From assembly GCA_022566715.1 (NCBI GenBank), contig JADFIH010000001.1, positions 2,420 to 66,419 on the forward strand: a stretch of DNA of 64,000 nt, read 5' to 3'. The stretch comes from Pseudomonadota bacterium. GTDB lineage: Bacteria > Pseudomonadota > Alphaproteobacteria > SHVP01. The notes under the pieces were generated by a model, which had not been told where the DNA came from, ran no database searches, and was given only the letters and a program-made list of their open reading frames with translations. This document shows, piece after piece, positions 6,633 to 60,998 of this stretch (position 1 is its first letter; each line of letters opens with the position of its first letter). The position numbers and the translations under genes were made by a program.

Positions 6633-6921
6633 AATTTTTCTCCCCGGCCGGAAGCGCGCCGCCTTGCGCCCCTGAAGCAAATCAATACGTTAGAGCAAAT
6701 TCTCCGGGTTGATGGACCGCCTTGGGCGGATCAACCGGGAGCGGCTCCGATCGACCCGGATTCGCTCCAACGGCGGCTATTCTAACGCGGAATGAGCGGG
6801 CCGTTGCAAGATGGACTCTGGCCGCCGCCACCCCCATTTGGCCCTGTATCCGACTTTGAATTTGACTTTCGAACCGGCTGTCCTACCCTGGCCTTCGATC
6901 AACACTTAGAATGCTTCCAAT

Positions 6922-9168
6922 ATGACCGCACAAACGACCCAAAAACCGCGGAAAACCGGCGCTCAGCGGCAGGCTGGCGGGGAACGCTCCTTCGCCAAGG
7001 AGGTGAAGCTTCTGCGCCTGGGCGAGGGCGATATCTTCGAGGGCGAGGGCATCCTGGCCGTCACCAAGGCGGCCCTGCAGGCCGGGGTCAGCTATGTGGG
7101 CGGCTATCAGGGATCGCCCGTTTCGCACCTCGTCGACGTGCTGTCCGAGGCCAAGGATATCCTCGACGAATACGGCGTCCACCTGGAGATCTGCGCCAAT
7201 GAAGCGGGCGCCGCCGCCATGCTGGGCGCCTCGGTCAACTACCCGATTCGTGGCCTGGTGACGTGGAAATCCATCGTCGGCACGAATGTCGCCGCCGACG
7301 CGTTGTCCAGCTTGGCCTCGACCGGCGTCAAGGGCGGCGCCATGGTGGTCATCGGCGAGGATTACGGCGAGGGCGCCAGCATCATTCAGGAGCGCAGCCA
7401 CGCCTATGCGCTGAAATCACAAATTTGGCTGCTCGACCCCCGGCCCAATCTCACATCGATCACCAACATGGTGGAAAAGGGCTTCGAGCTGTCCGAGGCG
7501 ACCAACACGCCCGTCATGTTGGAACTGCGTATCCTCGCCTGCCACGTTCAGGGGCGCTTCGTCTGTAAGGATAACGCGACGCCTAAATATTCGCGCAACA
7601 ACCCGATCAAAATTCCTGAGTTCAATGTGGAGCGGATCGCCCTGCCGCCGTTCACCTACCAGCAGGAGCGCGACAAGGTTACGCGCCGGTTGCCCGCCGC
7701 GATTCAGTTCGTCAAGGACAACAAGCTGAACGAGATGTTCCCGGGCGACATGGAGGAGGTCGGCATCATCGTCCAGGGCGGCCTCTATAACACGCTCATC
7801 CGCTCGCTGGGCCGCCTGGGGCTCGCCGATCTGAACGGGAATTCGCGGCTGCCCCTCTATGTCCTCAACGTGACGCATCCGCTCATCGACGACGAGATCG
7901 TCGAGTTCTGCGCCGGCAAATCCCACGTTCTCATGGTCGAGGAGGGGACGCCCGAATACATCGAGCAGGCCATCCATGTGGCGCTGCGCAAGGCGGACGT
8001 GAACACCAAGGTGAGCGGCAAGGATGTCTTGCCCGCCGCCGGCCAGTACACCAACGACGTGATGCTCACGGGCGTCGCCGAGTTCATCCGCAAGGCGGAA
8101 CCTCGCGGCGCCGACCTGAGCGCGGTTTCGCGGGCGCTTGCGGATACGGCGGCCCTGAAGCAGCAAGCGGCGGACCTGCTGGGTGGCACGGTGCCCGGAC
8201 GCCCCCCAACCTTTTGCACCGGCTGCCCCGAGCGGCCCGTGTTCACCGCAATCAAATTGCTGGAGCGCGAGCTGGGACCGACGCACATCAGCGCCGACAT
8301 CGGCTGCCACACCTTCGCCGCGTTGCCGCCCTTCGGCTTGGGCAACACCGTGCTGGGCTACGGCGCGGGACTTGCGAGCTCGACCGGCATCGCCCCCAAT
8401 TTCGAAAAGCGCACGATCAGCATCATGGGCGACGGCGGATTCTGGCACGGTGGTCTGACGAGCGGTGTGGCGAGCGCCGCCTTCAACCAGGCCGATTCGG
8501 TGCTGATCGTCATGAAGAACGGTTACACCTCGGCCACGGGATGGCAGTACCTGCCGTCAAGCCCCAAGGATGGCGACATGTCGGACACCCGCATGTCGAT
8601 CGAAAAGACCATCAAGGCACTGGGCATCACCTGGCAGAAGAAGGTCCACACCTACGACTTGGGGAAGATGGTCAAGACCCTGCGGGAGGCGATGACCACC
8701 AGCCGGGCCGGCCTCAAGGTCATCATCGCCGAGGCCGAGTGCCAGCTTGCAAAACAACGCCGCGTGAAGGCCGACCGCACCAAGAAGCTCGCCGCCGGCA
8801 AGCGCGCCGTGCGGCCGCGCTTCGGCATCGATGAGGACGTATGCACCGGCGACCACTCGTGTATCCGGCTGTCGGGCTGCCCATCGCTGACTATAAAGCC
8901 CAATCCCGACCCCTTGCGCACCGACCCGGTCGCGCACATCAAAGAGGATTGCGTGGGCTGCGGCCTTTGCGGCGAGATCGCGCACGCCGCGGCGTTGTGC
9001 CCGTCCTTCTACCAAGCCGACATCGTCTACAATCCGAATTTACTGGAGCGCGCCTTGAGCCGGGCGCGGCGCGCCGTCATCGGCCGCTTTTACAGCCGCG
9101 AGGCCGTGCGCCTGGCCGAGCCCGTGGCCGGTGTCCTCGAGGCCGAGGAGTCGCGGGCCGCCGCATGA
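6922..9168 (+). CDS. iorA: indolepyruvate:ferredoxin oxidoreductase alpha subunit (TPP- and 4Fe-4S-binding)
   Basis: 748 aa with a TPP-binding region (GDGGFWHGG) and a C-terminal ferredoxin-like CxxCxxC cysteine cluster. Stop overlaps the iorB start in an ATGA junction. Confidence 0.85.
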   Translation: MTAQTTQKPRKTGAQRQAGGERSFAKEVKLLRLGEGDIFEGEGILAVTKAALQAGVSYVGGYQGSPVSHLVDVLSEAKDILDEYGVHLEICANEAGAAAMLGASVNYPIRGLVTWKSIVGTNVAADALSSLASTGVKGGAMVVIGEDYGEGASIIQERSHAYALKSQIWLLDPRPNLTSITNMVEKGFELSEATNTPVMLELRILACHVQGRFVCKDNATPKYSRNNPIKIPEFNVERIALPPFTYQQERDKVTRRLPAAIQFVKDNKLNEMFPGDMEEVGIIVQGGLYNTLIRSLGRLGLADLNGNSRLPLYVLNVTHPLIDDEIVEFCAGKSHVLMVEEGTPEYIEQAIHVALRKADVNTKVSGKDVLPAAGQYTNDVMLTGVAEFIRKAEPRGADLSAVSRALADTAALKQQAADLLGGTVPGRPPTFCTGCPERPVFTAIKLLERELGPTHISADIGCHTFAALPPFGLGNTVLGYGAGLASSTGIAPNFEKRTISIMGDGGFWHGGLTSGVASAAFNQADSVLIVMKNGYTSATGWQYLPSSPKDGDMSDTRMSIEKTIKALGITWQKKVHTYDLGKMVKTLREAMTTSRAGLKVIIAEAECQLAKQRRVKADRTKKLAAGKRAVRPRFGIDEDVCTGDHSCIRLSGCPSLTIKPNPDPLRTDPVAHIKEDCVGCGLCGEIAHAAALCPSFYQADIVYNPNLLERALSRARRAVIGRFYSREAVRLAEPVAGVLEAEESRAAA

Positions 9169-55508: not shown

Positions 55509-56009
55509 ATGCGCCGCGTTTGGCAAACCGCCCTTGTTGTACTGTCCGTTTTGGTGGTGCTGGCCTGGGAGAGCCCTGCCGTCCGGGCCAGCGAAAACGG
55601 GGGCTTCCTGCCGCACTTCGTCTCGTTGCGCGCGGACAAGGTGAACGTTCGCGCAGGACCGGGCATGCGCTATCCCATCTCTTGGGTGTTCCGCCGCGCC
55701 GGACTTCCGGTGGAAGCCATCGCCGAGTTCGATAATTGGTTCAAGGTGCGGTACGCCGACGGCGACGTGGGATGGGTTCACCGGCGCCTGCTCTCGGCCA
55801 GGCGCACCGCGGTCATCGCCGGCAAACTTCGGATCCTTCGGCGCGACCCCAAACCGGACGGAACCCCCGTGCTGCAGGCGGAGGAGGGGGTCCAGGGACA
55901 ACTCCTGACCTGCCAGGACGCCTGGTGTCAGTTGCAGATCGGGGGGAAAAAGGGTTGGCTCCCGCGCGAAGCCCTTTGGGGCGTGTACCCCGACGAAAAC
56001 TTCAATTAG
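55509..56009 (+). CDS. periplasmic SH3b-domain protein
   Basis: Signal peptide then an SH3-like domain (VNVRAGPGMRYPISWVF, WVHRRLL). The arrangement is common in alphaproteobacteria. Confidence 0.6.
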   Translation: MRRVWQTALVVLSVLVVLAWESPAVRASENGGFLPHFVSLRADKVNVRAGPGMRYPISWVFRRAGLPVEAIAEFDNWFKVRYADGDVGWVHRRLLSARRTAVIAGKLRILRRDPKPDGTPVLQAEEGVQGQLLTCQDAWCQLQIGGKKGWLPREALWGVYPDENFN

Positions 56010-56178: not shown

Positions 56179-56303
56179 TAGGCGCCCCGCCGGTTATCCG
56201 GCGCGCCCGCGCAGGCGCGGACATCCTTAATTCATCCGAGATTGGCCCGTCCGAAGCCGTGAGCGACAAAAACTAGCGCGCCGACCCGGCGCCGCAATGC
56301 GCT

Positions 56304-56858
56304 CTATTCGAAATCGCCGGCCAGCGCTTCACGCGCTTCGGCGGGCAGGACCGCGGTATGGCCATAATTGGGATGGCCGATTCCGACCAGCACCTCGACC
56401 GCGGGATCGCGGAACCCGGCCACCTGCGCGTCGCTGAAGGGGAAATGCAGAAAATGGACGGACGAGGCCTTGCCGTCGCTCCGGGTGCGCTCGACATCGT
56501 CTTCGGGCACGGCGGTGATCGTTTCCTGCCCCACCTTTAAGGTGACCGTGCCCTCGACGCCGCCAAGCCGGCGCAGCTCCCGGCCGCGCCGTTCCGGATC
56601 GGGAATTTCGAACATCAGTGTCGCCACGAGTTCACGCCCCTTCGGCACGAGCGGGTTGTAGGCCGCAAGTTCGCCCTCGACCTGCGCCTCGCCACCCTTT
56701 TCGATGTGAAGCATCTCGTGAATCTGGATCCACATGGTGTCGTAGCTCTCGAAATAGAGGGTGGCGAAGGGACCGACCTCGACCCGGCGTTTTTTCTTGA
56801 TGGCCGACGCTTCGGCGCGCCGCTGTTTGCGGACGTCGGCGTAATCCGCCATCGGCAT
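56304..56858 (-). CDS. DUF3501-family protein
   Basis: Conserved partner of HdrD-like Fe-S proteins and rubrerythrin. Start MPMADYADVRK. Confidence 0.65.
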   Translation of the reverse strand: MPMADYADVRKQRRAEASAIKKKRRVEVGPFATLYFESYDTMWIQIHEMLHIEKGGEAQVEGELAAYNPLVPKGRELVATLMFEIPDPERRGRELRRLGGVEGTVTLKVGQETITAVPEDDVERTRSDGKASSVHFLHFPFSDAQVAGFRDPAVEVLVGIGHPNYGHTAVLPAEAREALAGDFE

Positions 56859-56907
56859 GATGTCGGCGCGAGTGATTTCCCGTTTCAAAGCGCTCACCGT
56901 CCGACCC

Positions 56908-58275
56908 TCACTCCGCCCCACTCTCCGACCCAATCTCCGAAATGCCGTAGGCGCGCGCCATGAGCTCCACCGGGTGGTAGGCGCGGCCACCAGGGACGGG
57001 CTCCTGGCCGAGCTTTTCCACCCCTTGAACGATGTGCTTGGCCGCCAAGGGACATTCGGATGCGAGGTAAGCCTTGCCGGCCTCGCGCGCCTTTTTGGCC
57101 ACGGGCTTGCCCACCTTTATGGCGACCTCGAAATTCTCACGTTTGATGCCCCACGATCCGCCATGCCCGGAGCAGCGTTCGATCACCGAGACATCCGTGT
57201 CGGGCAACAGGCGCAGGAGCTCGGCCGCCTTCGGGCCCATATTCTGGGCCCGCGCGTGGCAGGCGAGATGCACCGCGACGCCCCCCGGTAAGGGCGACAG
57301 GCCGTCCGCCAGCCCCTCGGCGCGGGCAATATCGACAATGTATTCGGTGATGTCCTTCGTCGCCCGCGAAAGCCGTTTGACGTCCGGGTCATCGGGCAGG
57401 ATGAGCGGCCATTCGAACTTCAGCATGAGAGAGCAAGACGGGATCAAGGCGACGATGTCGTAACCCTTCCCGATCCATGGCGCCATTTCCCGGGCGATCC
57501 GGCGGGCCCGGTTCGCAACCGACTCCAAATCGCCCTGCTCAAATTGCGGCATGCCGCAGCATTCTGGATAGACCACCTCGGTTTCGACGCCGTTCTTGGC
57601 GAGAACCCCCTGAGCCGCAACGCCGATTCCGGGACTGTTGTAATTCGCGAAACACGTCGCGTAGAGCACGGCCTTGCGCGCGGACGCCGGTGCATCGGAC
57701 GCAACCCGCGGCGGCGCCGACTTGCTTCGTCCGGCGAAGGTCTTGCGGTGGAATCGGGGCAGCTCCACGTCGCGGTGAATCCCGGCGATCCCCTCCAGCA
57801 GGGGCCGCGTCAGGCCATTGCCGCGCTTGGAGCCCCAGTTCGCCAGACCCGAAACCTTGCCCGCCAACCGCCCGTTGCGGTCGGTCTTGGCGATCTGCCG
57901 GTCGAAAAAACCGATGCCGTGGGATTTCTTTTCGGCGACCCGGTAGCGCAGCATGAGATGGGGGAAGTCGAGGTTGAACTCGTGCGGCGGCACATAAGGA
58001 CATTTGGTCATGAAGCACATGTCGCACAGGGTGCAGGCATCGACCACCGGAGCAAAGTCCTTGCTGTCCACCGAATCGAGCTCGCCGGTTTCCGAGCCGT
58101 CGATCAAATCGAAGAGGCGCGGGAACGAATCGCATAAGTTGAAACAGCGCCGGCAACCGTGGCAAATGTCGAAAACACGCCGAAGCTCCGCGTCGAGCTT
58201 GCCCGTGTCGGTGAAATCGGGATTGCGCCAATCGATGGGATGGCGTATCGGCGCTTCGGTGCCGCCCTCTTTCAT
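56908..58275 (-). CDS. heterodisulfide-reductase-related (HdrD/GlpC-like) Fe-S protein with two CCG domains
   Basis: Two ferredoxin-like cysteine motifs (CHGCRRCFNLC, CTLCDMCFMTKCP) and CCG-domain cysteines (YPECCGMP). Confidence 0.75.
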   Translation of the reverse strand: MKEGGTEAPIRHPIDWRNPDFTDTGKLDAELRRVFDICHGCRRCFNLCDSFPRLFDLIDGSETGELDSVDSKDFAPVVDACTLCDMCFMTKCPYVPPHEFNLDFPHLMLRYRVAEKKSHGIGFFDRQIAKTDRNGRLAGKVSGLANWGSKRGNGLTRPLLEGIAGIHRDVELPRFHRKTFAGRSKSAPPRVASDAPASARKAVLYATCFANYNSPGIGVAAQGVLAKNGVETEVVYPECCGMPQFEQGDLESVANRARRIAREMAPWIGKGYDIVALIPSCSLMLKFEWPLILPDDPDVKRLSRATKDITEYIVDIARAEGLADGLSPLPGGVAVHLACHARAQNMGPKAAELLRLLPDTDVSVIERCSGHGGSWGIKRENFEVAIKVGKPVAKKAREAGKAYLASECPLAAKHIVQGVEKLGQEPVPGGRAYHPVELMARAYGISEIGSESGAE

Positions 58276-58353
58276 GTCGCTGTTCGACCCCGTGCCTGAG
58301 AGGAAAAAGGGGGCCGCGATGAAGCCCCCTTCTCTAAGATCAGTTGAGTGGTT

Positions 58354-58773
58354 CTAGTCGAGCGTGTCCAGCGCCTTCTGGAAACGGCCGGCGTGAGATT
58401 TCTCGGCCTTTGCCAGGGTTTCAAACCAATCGGCGATTTCCTCGAACCCCTCGTCCCGCGCGGTACGCGCCATGCCGGGATACATGTCGGTGTACTCATG
58501 GGTCTCGCCGACGACAGCGGCCTTGAGGTTCAGCTGCGTACTGCCTATGGGCTCTCCCGTCGCCGGGTCGCCGGTTTCCTCGAGATACTCGAGATGCCCA
58601 TGGGCATGGCCGGTCTCACCCTCGGCGGTGGAGCGGAAGACCGCCGACACGTCGTTGTAGCCTTCGACATCCGCCTTTTGGGCGAAATAGAGATAGCGGC
58701 GATTCGCCTGCGACTCACCTGCAAACGCATCCTTCAAATTTTTTTCCGTCTTCGAACCGGCAAGCGATGCCAT
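58354..58773 (-). CDS. rubrerythrin-family diiron protein (no rubredoxin domain)
   Basis: Ferritin-like ExxH pairs (EGETGHAHGH, EYTDMYPGMARTARDEGFEEIADWFETLAKAEKSHAGRF). 139 aa. Confidence 0.8.
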   Translation of the reverse strand: MASLAGSKTEKNLKDAFAGESQANRRYLYFAQKADVEGYNDVSAVFRSTAEGETGHAHGHLEYLEETGDPATGEPIGSTQLNLKAAVVGETHEYTDMYPGMARTARDEGFEEIADWFETLAKAEKSHAGRFQKALDTLD

Positions 58774-58940
58774 CGTTCCTCCTCCTATCTGGATTTTCGA
58801 GTTTCATATGGCGAGATGGCGAGCGCGCCACCCCGTTTTGCCAGCCCTCCAATTGACAATTGACTGGCGAGAAAGCACGCGGCCATGCGCCCCGGCCGCG
58901 ATGATGGATATTTAATGCATCCCACGCAGCGAGTCAATAC

Positions 58941-58958
58941 ATTAGAATCGTTCTAATT
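58941..58958. promoter_or_regulatory. Irr-box / iron control element (ICE)-like palindrome upstream of rubrerythrin operon
   Basis: ATTAGAATCGTTCTAATT matches the ICE consensus TTTAGAA-N3-TTCTAAA at 12 of 14 positions. Lies 170 bp upstream of rubrerythrin and 100 bp downstream of irr. Confidence 0.5.
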
Positions 58959-58990
58959 ACCGACGAGCCAGAAATTTCCGGGAGTCAGCG

Positions 58991-59078
58991 ATCCCCGGTA
59001 ACGCGCCAAATACGACCGGGGACTATCTATCCCCGGTAACGCGCCAAAACGACCGGGGATTATCTATCCCCGGTAACA
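58991..59078. repeat. 2.4 tandem copies of a 37-38-bp hairpin-containing repeat overlapping the irr 3' end
   Basis: Unit ATCCCCGGTAACGCGCCAAA(T)ACGACCGGGGA(C/T)TATCT. Each unit holds the inverted repeat TCCCCGGT/ACCGGGGA. The partial third copy encodes the last 5 codons and stop of irr. Confidence 0.7.
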
Positions 59079-59494
59079 CGTATGACGACGTCGACGCTGG
59101 CGATCCGCTTTCCGGCGGGCGGATCGGGAAGCCGGCCGAGGACGACCGAACTACCGGGAATGTCTTCCAGGCGCCCAATGTCCTCATGATAGAAATGATG
59201 GTGCTCGGTCGTGTTGGTATCGAAATAGGATTTTCCGGGATCGACGACCACTTCATCGAGCAGGCCAACCTTCACGAACTGATGCAGGGTGTTGTAAATG
59301 GTCGCCAGCGAGACACGAACGCCCGCATCGACCGCTTCGGCGTGAAGCGCCTCCGCCGTCACGTGACGATGGGAGTCGCCGAAAAGAAGGCCGGCCAGGG
59401 CGAGCCGCTGCCGCGTGGGCCGCAGACCAACCTGCTTGAGACATCTCAAGGCGCCGCCATCACCGCGTGTGCTTGCACCCTGTGTGTTTGCCAT
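59060..59494 (-). CDS. irr: Fur-family regulator, Irr-like (iron response regulator)
   Basis: Fur winged-helix with the HHH motif (TEHHHFYHE) typical of Irr. Lacks the C-terminal Cys4 structural zinc site of Fur/PerR. Confidence 0.65.
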   Translation of the reverse strand: MANTQGASTRGDGGALRCLKQVGLRPTRQRLALAGLLFGDSHRHVTAEALHAEAVDAGVRVSLATIYNTLHQFVKVGLLDEVVVDPGKSYFDTNTTEHHHFYHEDIGRLEDIPGSSVVLGRLPDPPAGKRIASVDVVIRVTGDR

Positions 59495-59603: not shown

Positions 59604-60998
59604 CTAGTCCCCCGTGGCAATACGTTCCACAAGCTGCCCGACCGTTGGGATGAAACCGTTGGAATAGAACGGATCCGTGGCGAATCGGTAGCCCCCGTGG
59701 CCGGAGAACATCAGTTGGTCTTCGATATCATCGGAGTGGGCGATCGACTGCAAGGTCTTTTGGATGCAAAAGCTGCGCGGATCGGCCTTCCGGCCCGTAC
59801 CGCGGCCCTCGCCCTGCGACCAGTTCGAAAAGCGGCATGAGCTCAGGCAACCCATGCATTCGATCTGGTCGGTTCGGATCTGGTTGGCCTTCTGGGGGGT
59901 GACGAAGATCAGAGTCGAACCGGGCGTGCGCAACGCGTCGGTGAAGCCGGCGGCGATCCAGGCCTCCGCCCGCGCCTTGTCTTGTTCGGCGACGTAAACG
60001 ATCCGCTTTCGGGGTCCGATCGGAAGCTCGGCGTTGTGTTCGCCGACGGGTTGAGTCGTATAGGCGACTTGCCGCCCATTTCGTTCACGCAATTCCTTGA
60101 TGAAGTTGTTGTCGACCGCCGAGGACCAGAACCCCGTCGGACTGTAGTGATTGAGAAAGATATCACCCTCCTTGAGGGTCACGAGTTTCGCCTTCCAAGC
60201 ATCCGAGATGGGGCATTCCTTGGTCAGAAGGGCCCGGGTGCCGAATTGGAAGGCGATGGGCCCCAACTCCTTGTTGTCGAACCAGTCCTGCCACTCGCGC
60301 AGATACCAGACCCCACCCGCCATGATGATGGGCGTTTCGCCGAGACCGTATTCCCGCATCTTGTTACGAAGCTCGACGACCCGTGGAAAGGGATCTTCGG
60401 GTACTTCGGGGTCTTCGCTGTTCGACAGGCCGTTGTGGCCGCCGGCCAGCCAAGGATCCTCGTAGACCACCCCGCCGAGCATGTCGGAGAACTTGTGATA
60501 GGCGCGTTTCCATAGGGCACGAAAGGCGCGCGAGGACGACACGATGGGATAATAGGATATGCCAAAGTTGGCCGCGATCTGGGCGATGCGGTAAGGCATA
60601 CCGGCGCCGCAGGTGACACCGTTGATCAGACCCTTGGCCCCTTCGAGCACGCCATTGAGCACGCGCTCCGCGGCCCCCATTTCCCACAGAACGTTTATGT
60701 GAATGGGGCCGCCCCGGGCGAGCTCGTAAGCGGCCTTCGCCTGGGTTATGCCGCCGTCGATCGCATAACGCACGAGTTCCTCGTGACGCTCCCGCCGCGT
60801 GCGGCCACTATAAATCTGCGGAATGACGCGGCCATTGTCGTCATAGGAATCCGCGTTGACGCCGGAGAAGGTGCCGATTCCCCCGGCGGCGGCCCAGGCG
60901 CCGGAGCACTCGCCGTTGGTGATGGCGACGCCCTTGCCCCCTTCGACCAAGGGCAGCACGTCGTGGCCCGACATGCGGATTGAGTTAAGCGCTTTCAA
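59604..60998 (-). CDS. nitronate monooxygenase (NMO / 2-nitropropane dioxygenase family, FMN-dependent, long form)
   Basis: 464 aa TIM-barrel NMO with FMN-binding glycine-rich segments (GVTCGAGMP, IMAGGVW). Confidence 0.75.
   Translation of the reverse strand: MKALNSIRMSGHDVLPLVEGGKGVAITNGECSGAWAAAGGIGTFSGVNADSYDDNGRVIPQIYSGRTRRERHEELVRYAIDGGITQAKAAYELARGGPIHINVLWEMGAAERVLNGVLEGAKGLINGVTCGAGMPYRIAQIAANFGISYYPIVSSSRAFRALWKRAYHKFSDMLGGVVYEDPWLAGGHNGLSNSEDPEVPEDPFPRVVELRNKMREYGLGETPIIMAGGVWYLREWQDWFDNKELGPIAFQFGTRALLTKECPISDAWKAKLVTLKEGDIFLNHYSPTGFWSSAVDNNFIKELRERNGRQVAYTTQPVGEHNAELPIGPRKRIVYVAEQDKARAEAWIAAGFTDALRTPGSTLIFVTPQKANQIRTDQIECMGCLSSCRFSNWSQGEGRGTGRKADPRSFCIQKTLQSIAHSDDIEDQLMFSGHGGYRFATDPFYSNGFIPTVGQLVERIATGD

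Follow-up and report, generated by a model that had tools for sequence, protein, structure and literature searches.

How does a rubrerythrin that carries no rubredoxin domain obtain its electrons, and what do an iron-sulfur protein with CCG domains and a protein of the DUF3501 family do beside it? The question is raised by three consecutive open reading frames (ORFs) on the minus strand, at 56304-58773 of a 64-kb stretch of an alphaproteobacterial contig (JADFIH010000001.1; the whole stretch is referred to as the window). They encode, in the direction of transcription, the rubrerythrin (RBR, gene rbr), the Fe-S/CCG protein (RFO) and the DUF3501 protein. The gene for a Fur-family iron response regulator, irr, lies directly upstream of rbr and is co-directional with it. 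A preliminary description of this DNA had presented the three genes as an uncharacterized triad. The locus is an ordinary member of the ‘aerobic-type’ rubrerythrin system, rubrerythrins without a rubredoxin domain together with RFO and DUF3501, which Cardenas, Quatrini & Holmes had already named, with counts of co-occurrence, in 2016 (PMC5114695). Probably, the Irr-controlled operon is a cytoplasmic peroxide reductase in which RFO replaces the rubredoxin domain and DUF3501 serves as an adaptor.

A published cluster in an alphaproteobacterial genome

The preliminary description had placed the three genes on one strand, with a 78-nt gap between rbr and RFO, and the strand, the ORF coordinates, this gap and the protein families were all confirmed. 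The rbr gene (58354-58773, minus strand) encodes a single-domain, 139-aa aerobic-type rubrerythrin with the diiron four-helix bundle (PF02915, E = 1.5e-29), RFO (56908-58275, minus strand) has 455 aa and contains two CCG stretches (PF02754, E = 4.7e-12), and the DUF3501 gene (56304-56897, minus strand) encodes 197 aa from a GTG start (PF12007, E = 4.6e-59 on the ORF 56304-56990, an end-to-end match). The spacer between RFO and DUF3501 had to be corrected from 48 to 10 nt, because DUF3501 homologues are 196-197 aa long and a 98%-identical NCBI protein begins at the position equivalent to GTG 56897, not at the ATG chosen previously; the Pfam match also starts ahead of that ATG. The three genes probably share one transcript. 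No membrane-spanning segment is predicted in any of the three proteins.

In the published survey, 185 of 4461 complete genomes have all of RBR, RFO and DUF3501, 25 have RBR with DUF3501 but no RFO, and just one or two have DUF3501 or RFO without RBR. The survey also records fusions of DUF3501 to RFO in Nitrosomonas and places GlpC as the outgroup nearest to RFO, and its authors propose that RFO takes the electron-transfer role of the lost rubredoxin domain (PMC5114695). The window has the same three families, adjacent and co-directional, an RBR without rubredoxin domain and an RFO closest to GlpC. It differs from the published system in nothing essential; the Irr/ICE layer and the conserved promoter geometry described below belong to the alphaproteobacterial branch and lie outside the 2016 description. 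In Andalucia and other protists the three proteins are directed to the mitochondria (Gray et al. 2020, PMC7050145). In Sideroxydans the cluster adjoins oxyR, and a Blastocatellia genome combines it with dps (PMC7852563).

A scan of a genome collection with a DUF3501 alignment gave 80 related loci, nearly all alphaproteobacterial. By tblastn, the order rbr-RFO-DUF3501 is present in 74 of them and a co-directional irr homologue stands directly upstream of rbr in about 64. The spacing of RFO and DUF3501 is tight (median ~20 nt). The picture of a conserved, co-directional triad with DUF3501 as a recurrent partner of no assigned function is thus borne out here and in the literature, and the co-occurrence across genomes on which the preliminary description made it depend is seen in both the published counts and the related loci. 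A Roseomonas locus (L072) has RBR and DUF3501 without RFO. Across the 80 loci the rubrerythrin is far better conserved (81-93% identity to the window protein) than RFO (~56-70%) or DUF3501 (~55-68%).

Synteny extends well beyond the triad, through pnp, an NMO-like gene or fabABI, irr, the triad itself, a convergent SH3-domain gene, a 2-hydroxyacid dehydrogenase gene and moeB, and it holds even where DUF3501 identity drops to 42%, in a marine alphaproteobacterium of low GC content.

The rubrerythrin is probably of the peroxidase type

The rbr product lacks a rubredoxin domain: it ends at residue 139 and covers positions 1-144 of the 194-position Rbr model. Its score against the classical Rbr equivalog (138 bits) is under the cutoff of 200, PF02915 is its only domain, and no cysteine pair is found in its sequence. 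The diiron-type residues E20, E53, H56, E90/E93, E124 and H127 are all present. Sequence scores place the protein in the sulerythrin/ferriperoxin clade, with 243 bits to B. pseudomallei Rbr (BpRbr; PDB 4di0, 9onm, 8fuh) and 175 bits to sulerythrin (1j30).

The preliminary description took rubrerythrin to suggest peroxide chemistry, and this stands, since the close single-domain homologues are characterised peroxidases or have solved structures. Ferriperoxin of Hydrogenobacter thermophilus reduces H2O2 and organic hydroperoxides in an NADPH- and FNR-dependent reaction, and its knockout does not grow aerobically (PMC3317640). A peroxidase activity of sulerythrin is cited in a 2025 preprint on BpRbr, which also hypothesises that the operon partners of BpRbr are its missing electron-transfer partner. 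BpRbr is induced by oxidative stress and, like sulerythrin, forms domain-swapped dimers. Ferriperoxin, sulerythrin and BpRbr share the single-domain clade (175-243 bits) and the diiron-type ligand residues with the window protein, but they were studied with generic or artificial reductants (FNR + NADPH) and the RFO and DUF3501 partners were not included. The RFO gene is unlinked in Hydrogenobacter (PMC5114695).

The classical system of anaerobes such as D. vulgaris and P. furiosus, consisting of rubrerythrin, rubredoxin and NAD(P)H:rubredoxin oxidoreductase, is likewise a diiron peroxide reductase fed by an iron-based one-electron carrier, often with a gene for a Fur-family (PerR/Fur-like) regulator beside rbr. 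In contrast, the locus studied here has no rubredoxin domain, its presumed electron input is a multi-cluster CCG protein, and its regulator is Irr.

RFO resembles an electron relay

All 15 cysteines of RFO are invariant across 118 homologues. Two ferredoxin-type motifs had been read as CxxCxxCxxxC; this fits the first (C38/41/44/48), whereas the second is CxxCxxCxxxxCP (C81/84/87/92). The two CCG domains that had been recognised are both found, the first with C208, C239, C240 and C281 and the second with C339, C368 and C408, but the second is degenerate, with C-S-G in place of C-C-G and C-P-L-A in place of CxxC, a state that is invariant in the 118 homologues.

The RFO profile aligns to HdrB (E = 2.6e-5), and RFO retains seven of the ten HdrB CCG-motif cysteines, with invariant P279, S369 and A411 at the other three positions. 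C281, the equivalent of the HdrB bridging Cys81, is kept, and A411 stands at the bridging Cys234. The best structural match of RFO is EtfD, and the fold of its CCG domains is HdrB-like; a single-sequence search matched no PDB chain. In HdrB, both noncubane clusters are solvent-accessible and each has a bridging cysteine (Cys81, Cys234) for disulfide cleavage. The soluble part of EtfD contains two cubane [4Fe-4S] clusters followed by two CCG-domain clusters, a linear [3Fe-4S] cluster where CTG replaces CCG and a noncubane [4Fe-4S] cluster completed by a His ligand; these CCG clusters are shielded from solvent and described as non-catalytic relays, in which the authors see an adaptation to oxygen (PMC13083937).

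RFO thus has the architecture of HdrD, EtfD (M. smegmatis, 9ojn) and GlpC, but it differs from EtfD and HdrD/HdrB in having neither a membrane or heme-b domain nor an HdrA, HdrC or HdrE partner. An HdrE cytochrome b, HdrA or HdrC is not encoded alongside RFO in the window, and related loci show the same neighbours. The CCG-domain cysteines number 4+3 in RFO, 5+5 in HdrB and 4+5 plus His in EtfD. With reduced CCG sites and no membrane or flavoprotein partner in the cluster, RFO is more likely to be an electron wire than a disulfide reductase. The proposal that it is the catalytic module of a heterodisulfide reductase with a disulfide substrate is weakened by the loss of three of the ten cysteines, by the alanine at Cys234 and by EtfD as best match.

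Is RFO, then, a misplaced dehydrogenase subunit? The preliminary description had considered an orthologue of GlcF or LutA with partners elsewhere. GlpC is the best NCBIfam match of RFO, and an alignment with E. coli GlpC over 318 aa shows 25% identity; compared with that protein, the second CCG domain of RFO has lost the second cysteine of both motifs, CCG and CxxC. All scores are below the curated cutoffs, with 184 and 100 bits for GlpC (cutoffs 278 and 280), 28 bits for GlcF (333) and 85 bits for LdhH (800), and LutA gave no NCBIfam match. No glpAB, glcDE or lut partners adjoin RFO, whose neighbours are rbr, DUF3501, irr and the gene of an SH3-domain protein. By these scores, RFO is not an orthologue of GlpC, GlcF or LdhH. 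An exact-sequence look-up of RFO among contigs gave no match, although a 100%-identical protein from a metagenome-assembled genome (MAG) exists at NCBI. Public records name the family ‘glycerol-3-phosphate dehydrogenase (subunit C)’, ‘heterodisulfide reductase-related iron-sulfur binding cluster’ or ‘ferredoxin’, and because RFO fails the curated GlpC cutoffs, we regard the GlpC naming as a systematic over-annotation.

DUF3501 as a candidate adaptor

DUF3501 is predicted to form a beta-sandwich with an N-terminal helical arm and matches PDB 3fjv (E = 4e-32), a solved structure without a functional explanation; the fold is an orphan. The family comprises 2216 clusters at 50% identity (E <= 1e-3). 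A metal site of conserved His and Glu residues was considered and rejected, as the His residues that are invariant in close relatives are lost in distant members. The only residues invariant among the distant members are R23, G42, F49, E61, E76, P85, E97, L108, F152 and Y178 (window numbering). No Cys or His is invariant across them, a pattern that speaks against both a redox cofactor and a metal site of the classical kind.

Most likely, judging by sequence, DUF3501 has no catalytic role and links RBR with RFO as an adaptor or assembly partner. Such a role fits the published DUF3501-RFO fusions, the RBR-DUF3501 pairs without RFO and the tight spacing of the RFO and DUF3501 genes. The fusions are taken from PMC5114695 alone: none was found among the top 150 representatives, where no protein exceeds 320 aa, and a third homologue search returned alphaproteobacterial single-domain proteins.

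Probable Irr/ICE control of the operon

The irr gene (59060-59494, minus strand) encodes a Fur-family iron response regulator (PF01475, E = 3e-18) that passes the NCBIfam IrrA cutoff (200.9 vs 150 bits). Between irr and rbr, 183 nt upstream of the rbr ATG, lies an Irr box, or iron control element (ICE; TTAGAACGATTCTAA, 58942-58956, to which no strand is assigned), a perfect palindrome of the form TTAGAA-N3-TTCTAA. It is the sole perfect match in the 64-kb window, where 0 are expected by chance. A predicted rbr promoter (58909-58937, minus strand) follows directly, with the -35 box TTGACT (58937-58932) beginning 4 nt after the ICE, a 17-nt spacer and the -10 box TAAATA (58914-58909); the promoter is a prediction and has no mapped start site.

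The arrangement recurs. Of 70 irr-rbr spacers from the related loci, 53 contain an ICE-like site with at most two mismatches. The full 867 kb of the loci contain just 64 sites of this kind, with 53 of them in spacers that make up <2% of the sequence. Anchored on the ICE, 54 spacers give the consensus ICE-acTaTTGAC-N17/18-cATAtA, and a TTGAC-like box lies within 16 nt past the ICE in 51 of the 54. The Irr/ICE control noted previously upstream of the triad is, as far as such patterns can tell, real and conserved. In its Irr orthologue above the curated cutoff and its perfect palindrome, the locus resembles the known Irr-ICE regulon (mbfA, bfr, ccpA; Rodionov 2006, Rudolph 2006, Peuser 2012), and binding of Irr to the ICE is established in homologues. 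Irr control of rubrerythrin is also not new, since the minimal Irr regulon that Rodionov et al. (2006) predicted for Rhodospirillum, Magnetospirillum and Pelagibacter already included a ‘rubrerythrin-like’ gene.

In which direction would Irr act? By analogy, it most likely represses this iron-rich operon when iron is scarce. The best parallel is the R. sphaeroides ccpA promoter, whose geometry resembles the ICE-promoter arrangement of the window; Irr binds it in vitro, and its activity is ~2-fold higher in an irr mutant under iron limitation, which favours repression at low iron. Another candidate precedent is the classical Irr-repressed ‘rubrerythrin-like’ gene blr7895 of B. japonicum, which we take to be mbfA, the gene of a membrane erythrin-VIT1 iron exporter. 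Given this assignment, and the homology of blr7895 to MbfA (Peuser 2012), we rejected it as an experimental precedent for the soluble RBR.

Two gammaproteobacterial loci, in Arhodomonas sp. SL1 (L007) and an Ectothiorhodospiraceae MAG (L018), carry irr-rbr-RFO-DUF3501 without the alphaproteobacterial flanking genes. The regulator of L007 passes the IrrA cutoff (168.8 vs 150 bits) and is accompanied by an ICE-like site with one mismatch; that of L018 scores just below the cutoff (145.7), and no ICE-like site was found in its irr-rbr spacer. As Irr and ICE had been reported only in Alphaproteobacteria (Rodionov 2006), the pattern resembles a lateral transfer in which operon and regulator moved jointly. 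These two loci and the conserved operator-promoter unit speak for a functional tie of irr to the triad.

Two structural features accompany this region. A GC-rich stem-loop (58878-58900, minus strand) lies right after the predicted rbr transcription start, and comparable hairpins of different sequence occupy the same place in many related loci (median z -1.55; z < -2 in 18 of 51, with mononucleotide shuffles) and have no Rfam match; it could, on this weak signal, be a 5' stabilising hairpin. Further upstream, at 58971-59080, three tandem ~37-nt copies of a hairpin-forming repeat, ACCGGGGAT-TATCT-ATCCCCGGT, overlap the last codons and stop of irr and reach toward the ICE. They look like repetitive (REP-like) elements or an irr terminator.

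A proposed route for peroxide reduction

How might the parts work together? RBR would be the catalyst, its diiron site reducing H2O2 and organic hydroperoxides to water or alcohol, as its homologues do. The cluster chain of RFO, with two cubane-type sites and two CCG-domain sites, would carry electrons from a cellular donor to the diiron site, and DUF3501 would hold RBR and RFO together. Candidate donors include NAD(P)H via a flavoprotein, electron transfer flavoprotein (ETF), quinol and a thiol. Irr bound to the ICE abutting the -35 box may hold the promoter down when iron is scarce, a sign that we infer, and sufficient iron, or destabilisation of Irr by peroxide, would lift this block.

Several observations sit uneasily with this scheme. 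Ferriperoxin turned over in vitro with FNR alone, so RFO and DUF3501 are not strictly needed for turnover, and Thermoproteales have RBR and DUF3501 without RFO (PMC5114695). The searched literature contains no experimental test of RFO or DUF3501, whether of RBR reduction by RFO or of DUF3501 binding to RBR or RFO. BpRbr binds several metals promiscuously, which makes the active metal in vivo uncertain. On the regulatory side, a Pelagibacter rbr gene, whose membership in a triad is not established, is up 1.57-fold under iron limitation, which misfits simple repression by Irr, and the ICE lies upstream of the -35 box without overlapping it, a position also compatible with activation. Finally, because the wide neighbourhood is syntenic, the adjacency of the genes may be an inherited backbone order and is not proof of function.

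RFO itself can be read in other ways. In line with the preliminary description, it might be a true HdrD-like thiol/disulfide enzyme whose CCG clusters oxidise a low-molecular-weight thiol such as glutathione, with rubrerythrin receiving the electrons; the triad would then be an Fe-S-dependent thiol peroxidase or a system of thiol redox chemistry. Thermodynamically, thiols suit low-potential clusters well as donors. The two CCG domains with their HdrB-like fold and the retained equivalent of Cys81 (C281) agree with such an enzyme, and a ubiquitous small-molecule donor is attractive in that no dedicated reductase gene travels with the triad in related loci. We nevertheless hold it to be unlikely: with seven of ten HdrB cysteines and invariant P279, S369 and A411, the protein lacks the Cys234 needed for one of the two catalytic clusters, in EtfD, the closest structure, sites with similar alterations (CTG for CCG, a His ligand) serve as relays that are shielded and non-catalytic, and the family spans lineages with different thiols, among them Sulfolobales, Actinobacteria, Proteobacteria and mitochondria. 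That RFO is instead an ordinary GlpC-, GlcF- or LutA-type dehydrogenase subunit, with partners elsewhere and an incidental rubrerythrin neighbour, is contradicted by the data and barely credible. Its public name, its best NCBIfam match and its 25% identity to E. coli GlpC speak for GlpC, but RFO falls below every curated cutoff (GlpC, GlcF, LdhH) and has lost two cysteines of the second CCG domain that E. coli GlpC has; rbr and DUF3501 flank it in 74 of 80 loci, and the genome-wide counts almost never show it without RBR (PMC5114695).

Other readings move the weight to DUF3501 or to iron. DUF3501 might be a metallochaperone or repair factor that (re)loads iron into the dimetal site of RBR, with RFO feeding electrons independently. 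The pairs of RBR and DUF3501 without RFO in Thermoproteales and the Roseomonas locus tie DUF3501 first to RBR, BpRbr mis-metallates easily, and E61, E76 and E97 are invariant even in distant DUF3501 members; against this, the family has no conserved His or Cys throughout, and the Nitrosomonas fusions (PMC5114695) point to contact with RFO, so that we judge a loading role about as improbable as the thiol enzyme. More doubtful still is an operon for iron homeostasis and not peroxide removal, in which RBR is a ferroxidase or small iron store recycled by RFO and Irr control reflects membership in an iron-storage or iron-sparing regulon. Irr regulons are indeed dominated by genes of iron storage and usage, and rubrerythrin belongs to the ferritin-like superfamily and is annotated as a putative ferroxidase in Pelagibacter. 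Yet a 139-aa four-helix bundle of the domain-swapped-dimer type has, from what is generally known of ferritins, no storage cavity, enzymology and genetics in the RBR clade show a peroxidase function, and OxyR and Dps are linked to the cluster in other lineages. We keep to the peroxide reductase with RFO as its electron relay.

A more far-reaching version of that peroxide reductase can be entertained, although the chances are clearly against it in full. RFO would be a soluble, oxygen-tolerant relative of EtfD and HdrD, whose remodelled second CCG site (three Cys, invariant Ser and Ala substitutions, and invariant His residues nearby) might accommodate an unusual cluster, such as a linear [3Fe-4S]-like one of the EtfD kind. 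With DUF3501 as docking adaptor it would link the ETF, quinol or flavoprotein pool directly to rubrerythrin. Irr would have begun as the local regulator of the cassette in Alphaproteobacteria, and cassette and regulator would later have moved to Gammaproteobacteria. If true, this would be a cytoplasmic or mitochondrial peroxide reductase linked to the respiratory chain and conserved from Sulfolobales to protist mitochondria.

Significance

The observation in the preliminary description is correct and its interpretation broadly reasonable; the system is already named, counted and partly characterised. It is widespread: it occurs in aerobic members of both Bacteria and Archaea, and the literature adds the mitochondria of several protist lineages. 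Its rubrerythrin is indispensable for aerobic growth in Hydrogenobacter. Identifying the donor, and what RFO and DUF3501 do, would establish a third major route of peroxide scavenging beside catalases and peroxiredoxins and would give a large domain family of unknown function its role. The window holds an ordinary copy of the published cluster, and the question is no easier to answer here than in dozens of cultured organisms.

Neighbouring genes and minor features

Two hairpins punctuate the operon. A GC-rich stem-loop ending in a U run lies in the rbr-RFO spacer (58304-58334, minus strand; minimum free energy -27.3 kcal/mol, z = -2.05) and is possibly a partial terminator or processing site, its role being uncertain; a conserved attenuator was considered and rejected, as a hairpin with T run occurs in only 8 of 74 related loci. 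A terminator-like hairpin with a T run (GCGCCGGGTCGGCGC, 56278-56292, minus strand), located by a consensus scan, follows 12 nt past the DUF3501 stop codon. Rfam gave no match in the region at E <= 1.

Between pnp and irr, the window and 29 related loci carry a gene for a 464-aa NMO-family (FabK-like) flavoprotein (59604-60998, minus strand), which in one locus (L083) ends 1 nt before the irr start. In 11-15 other loci the same slot holds fabA-fabB-fabI, and the NMO-like gene and fabA-fabB-fabI never occur together. The exchange suggests that the NMO-like protein acts in fatty-acid synthesis, perhaps as an enoyl reductase, and shows an old linkage of irr and fab genes. As a candidate for the missing reductase the flavoprotein was rejected, because it is absent from the gammaproteobacterial cassettes and replaced by fabA-fabB-fabI elsewhere; we do not count it in the rubrerythrin system.

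Next beyond DUF3501 lies a convergent gene (55509-56009, plus strand; identified by ORF and domain match) for a secreted-looking protein with two SH3_4 domains, which follows DUF3501 in 51 of the 80 loci and also at L083:6581-7093. A Blastocatellia genome has an SH3-domain protein inside a Dps-RBR-RFO-DUF3501 operon (PMC7852563). The association with the triad may reflect nothing more than shared backbone order, or else a link that has gone unrecognised.

Elsewhere in the window, an ICE-like site with one mismatch (TTAGAATGCTTCCAA, 6906-6920) lies 1 nt upstream of the ATG of a 748-aa ORF (6922-9168, plus strand). On inspection of its sequence, including C-terminal Cys motifs, the product looks like a subunit of a 2-oxoacid/indolepyruvate:ferredoxin oxidoreductase, and the gene may be another Irr target for iron sparing.

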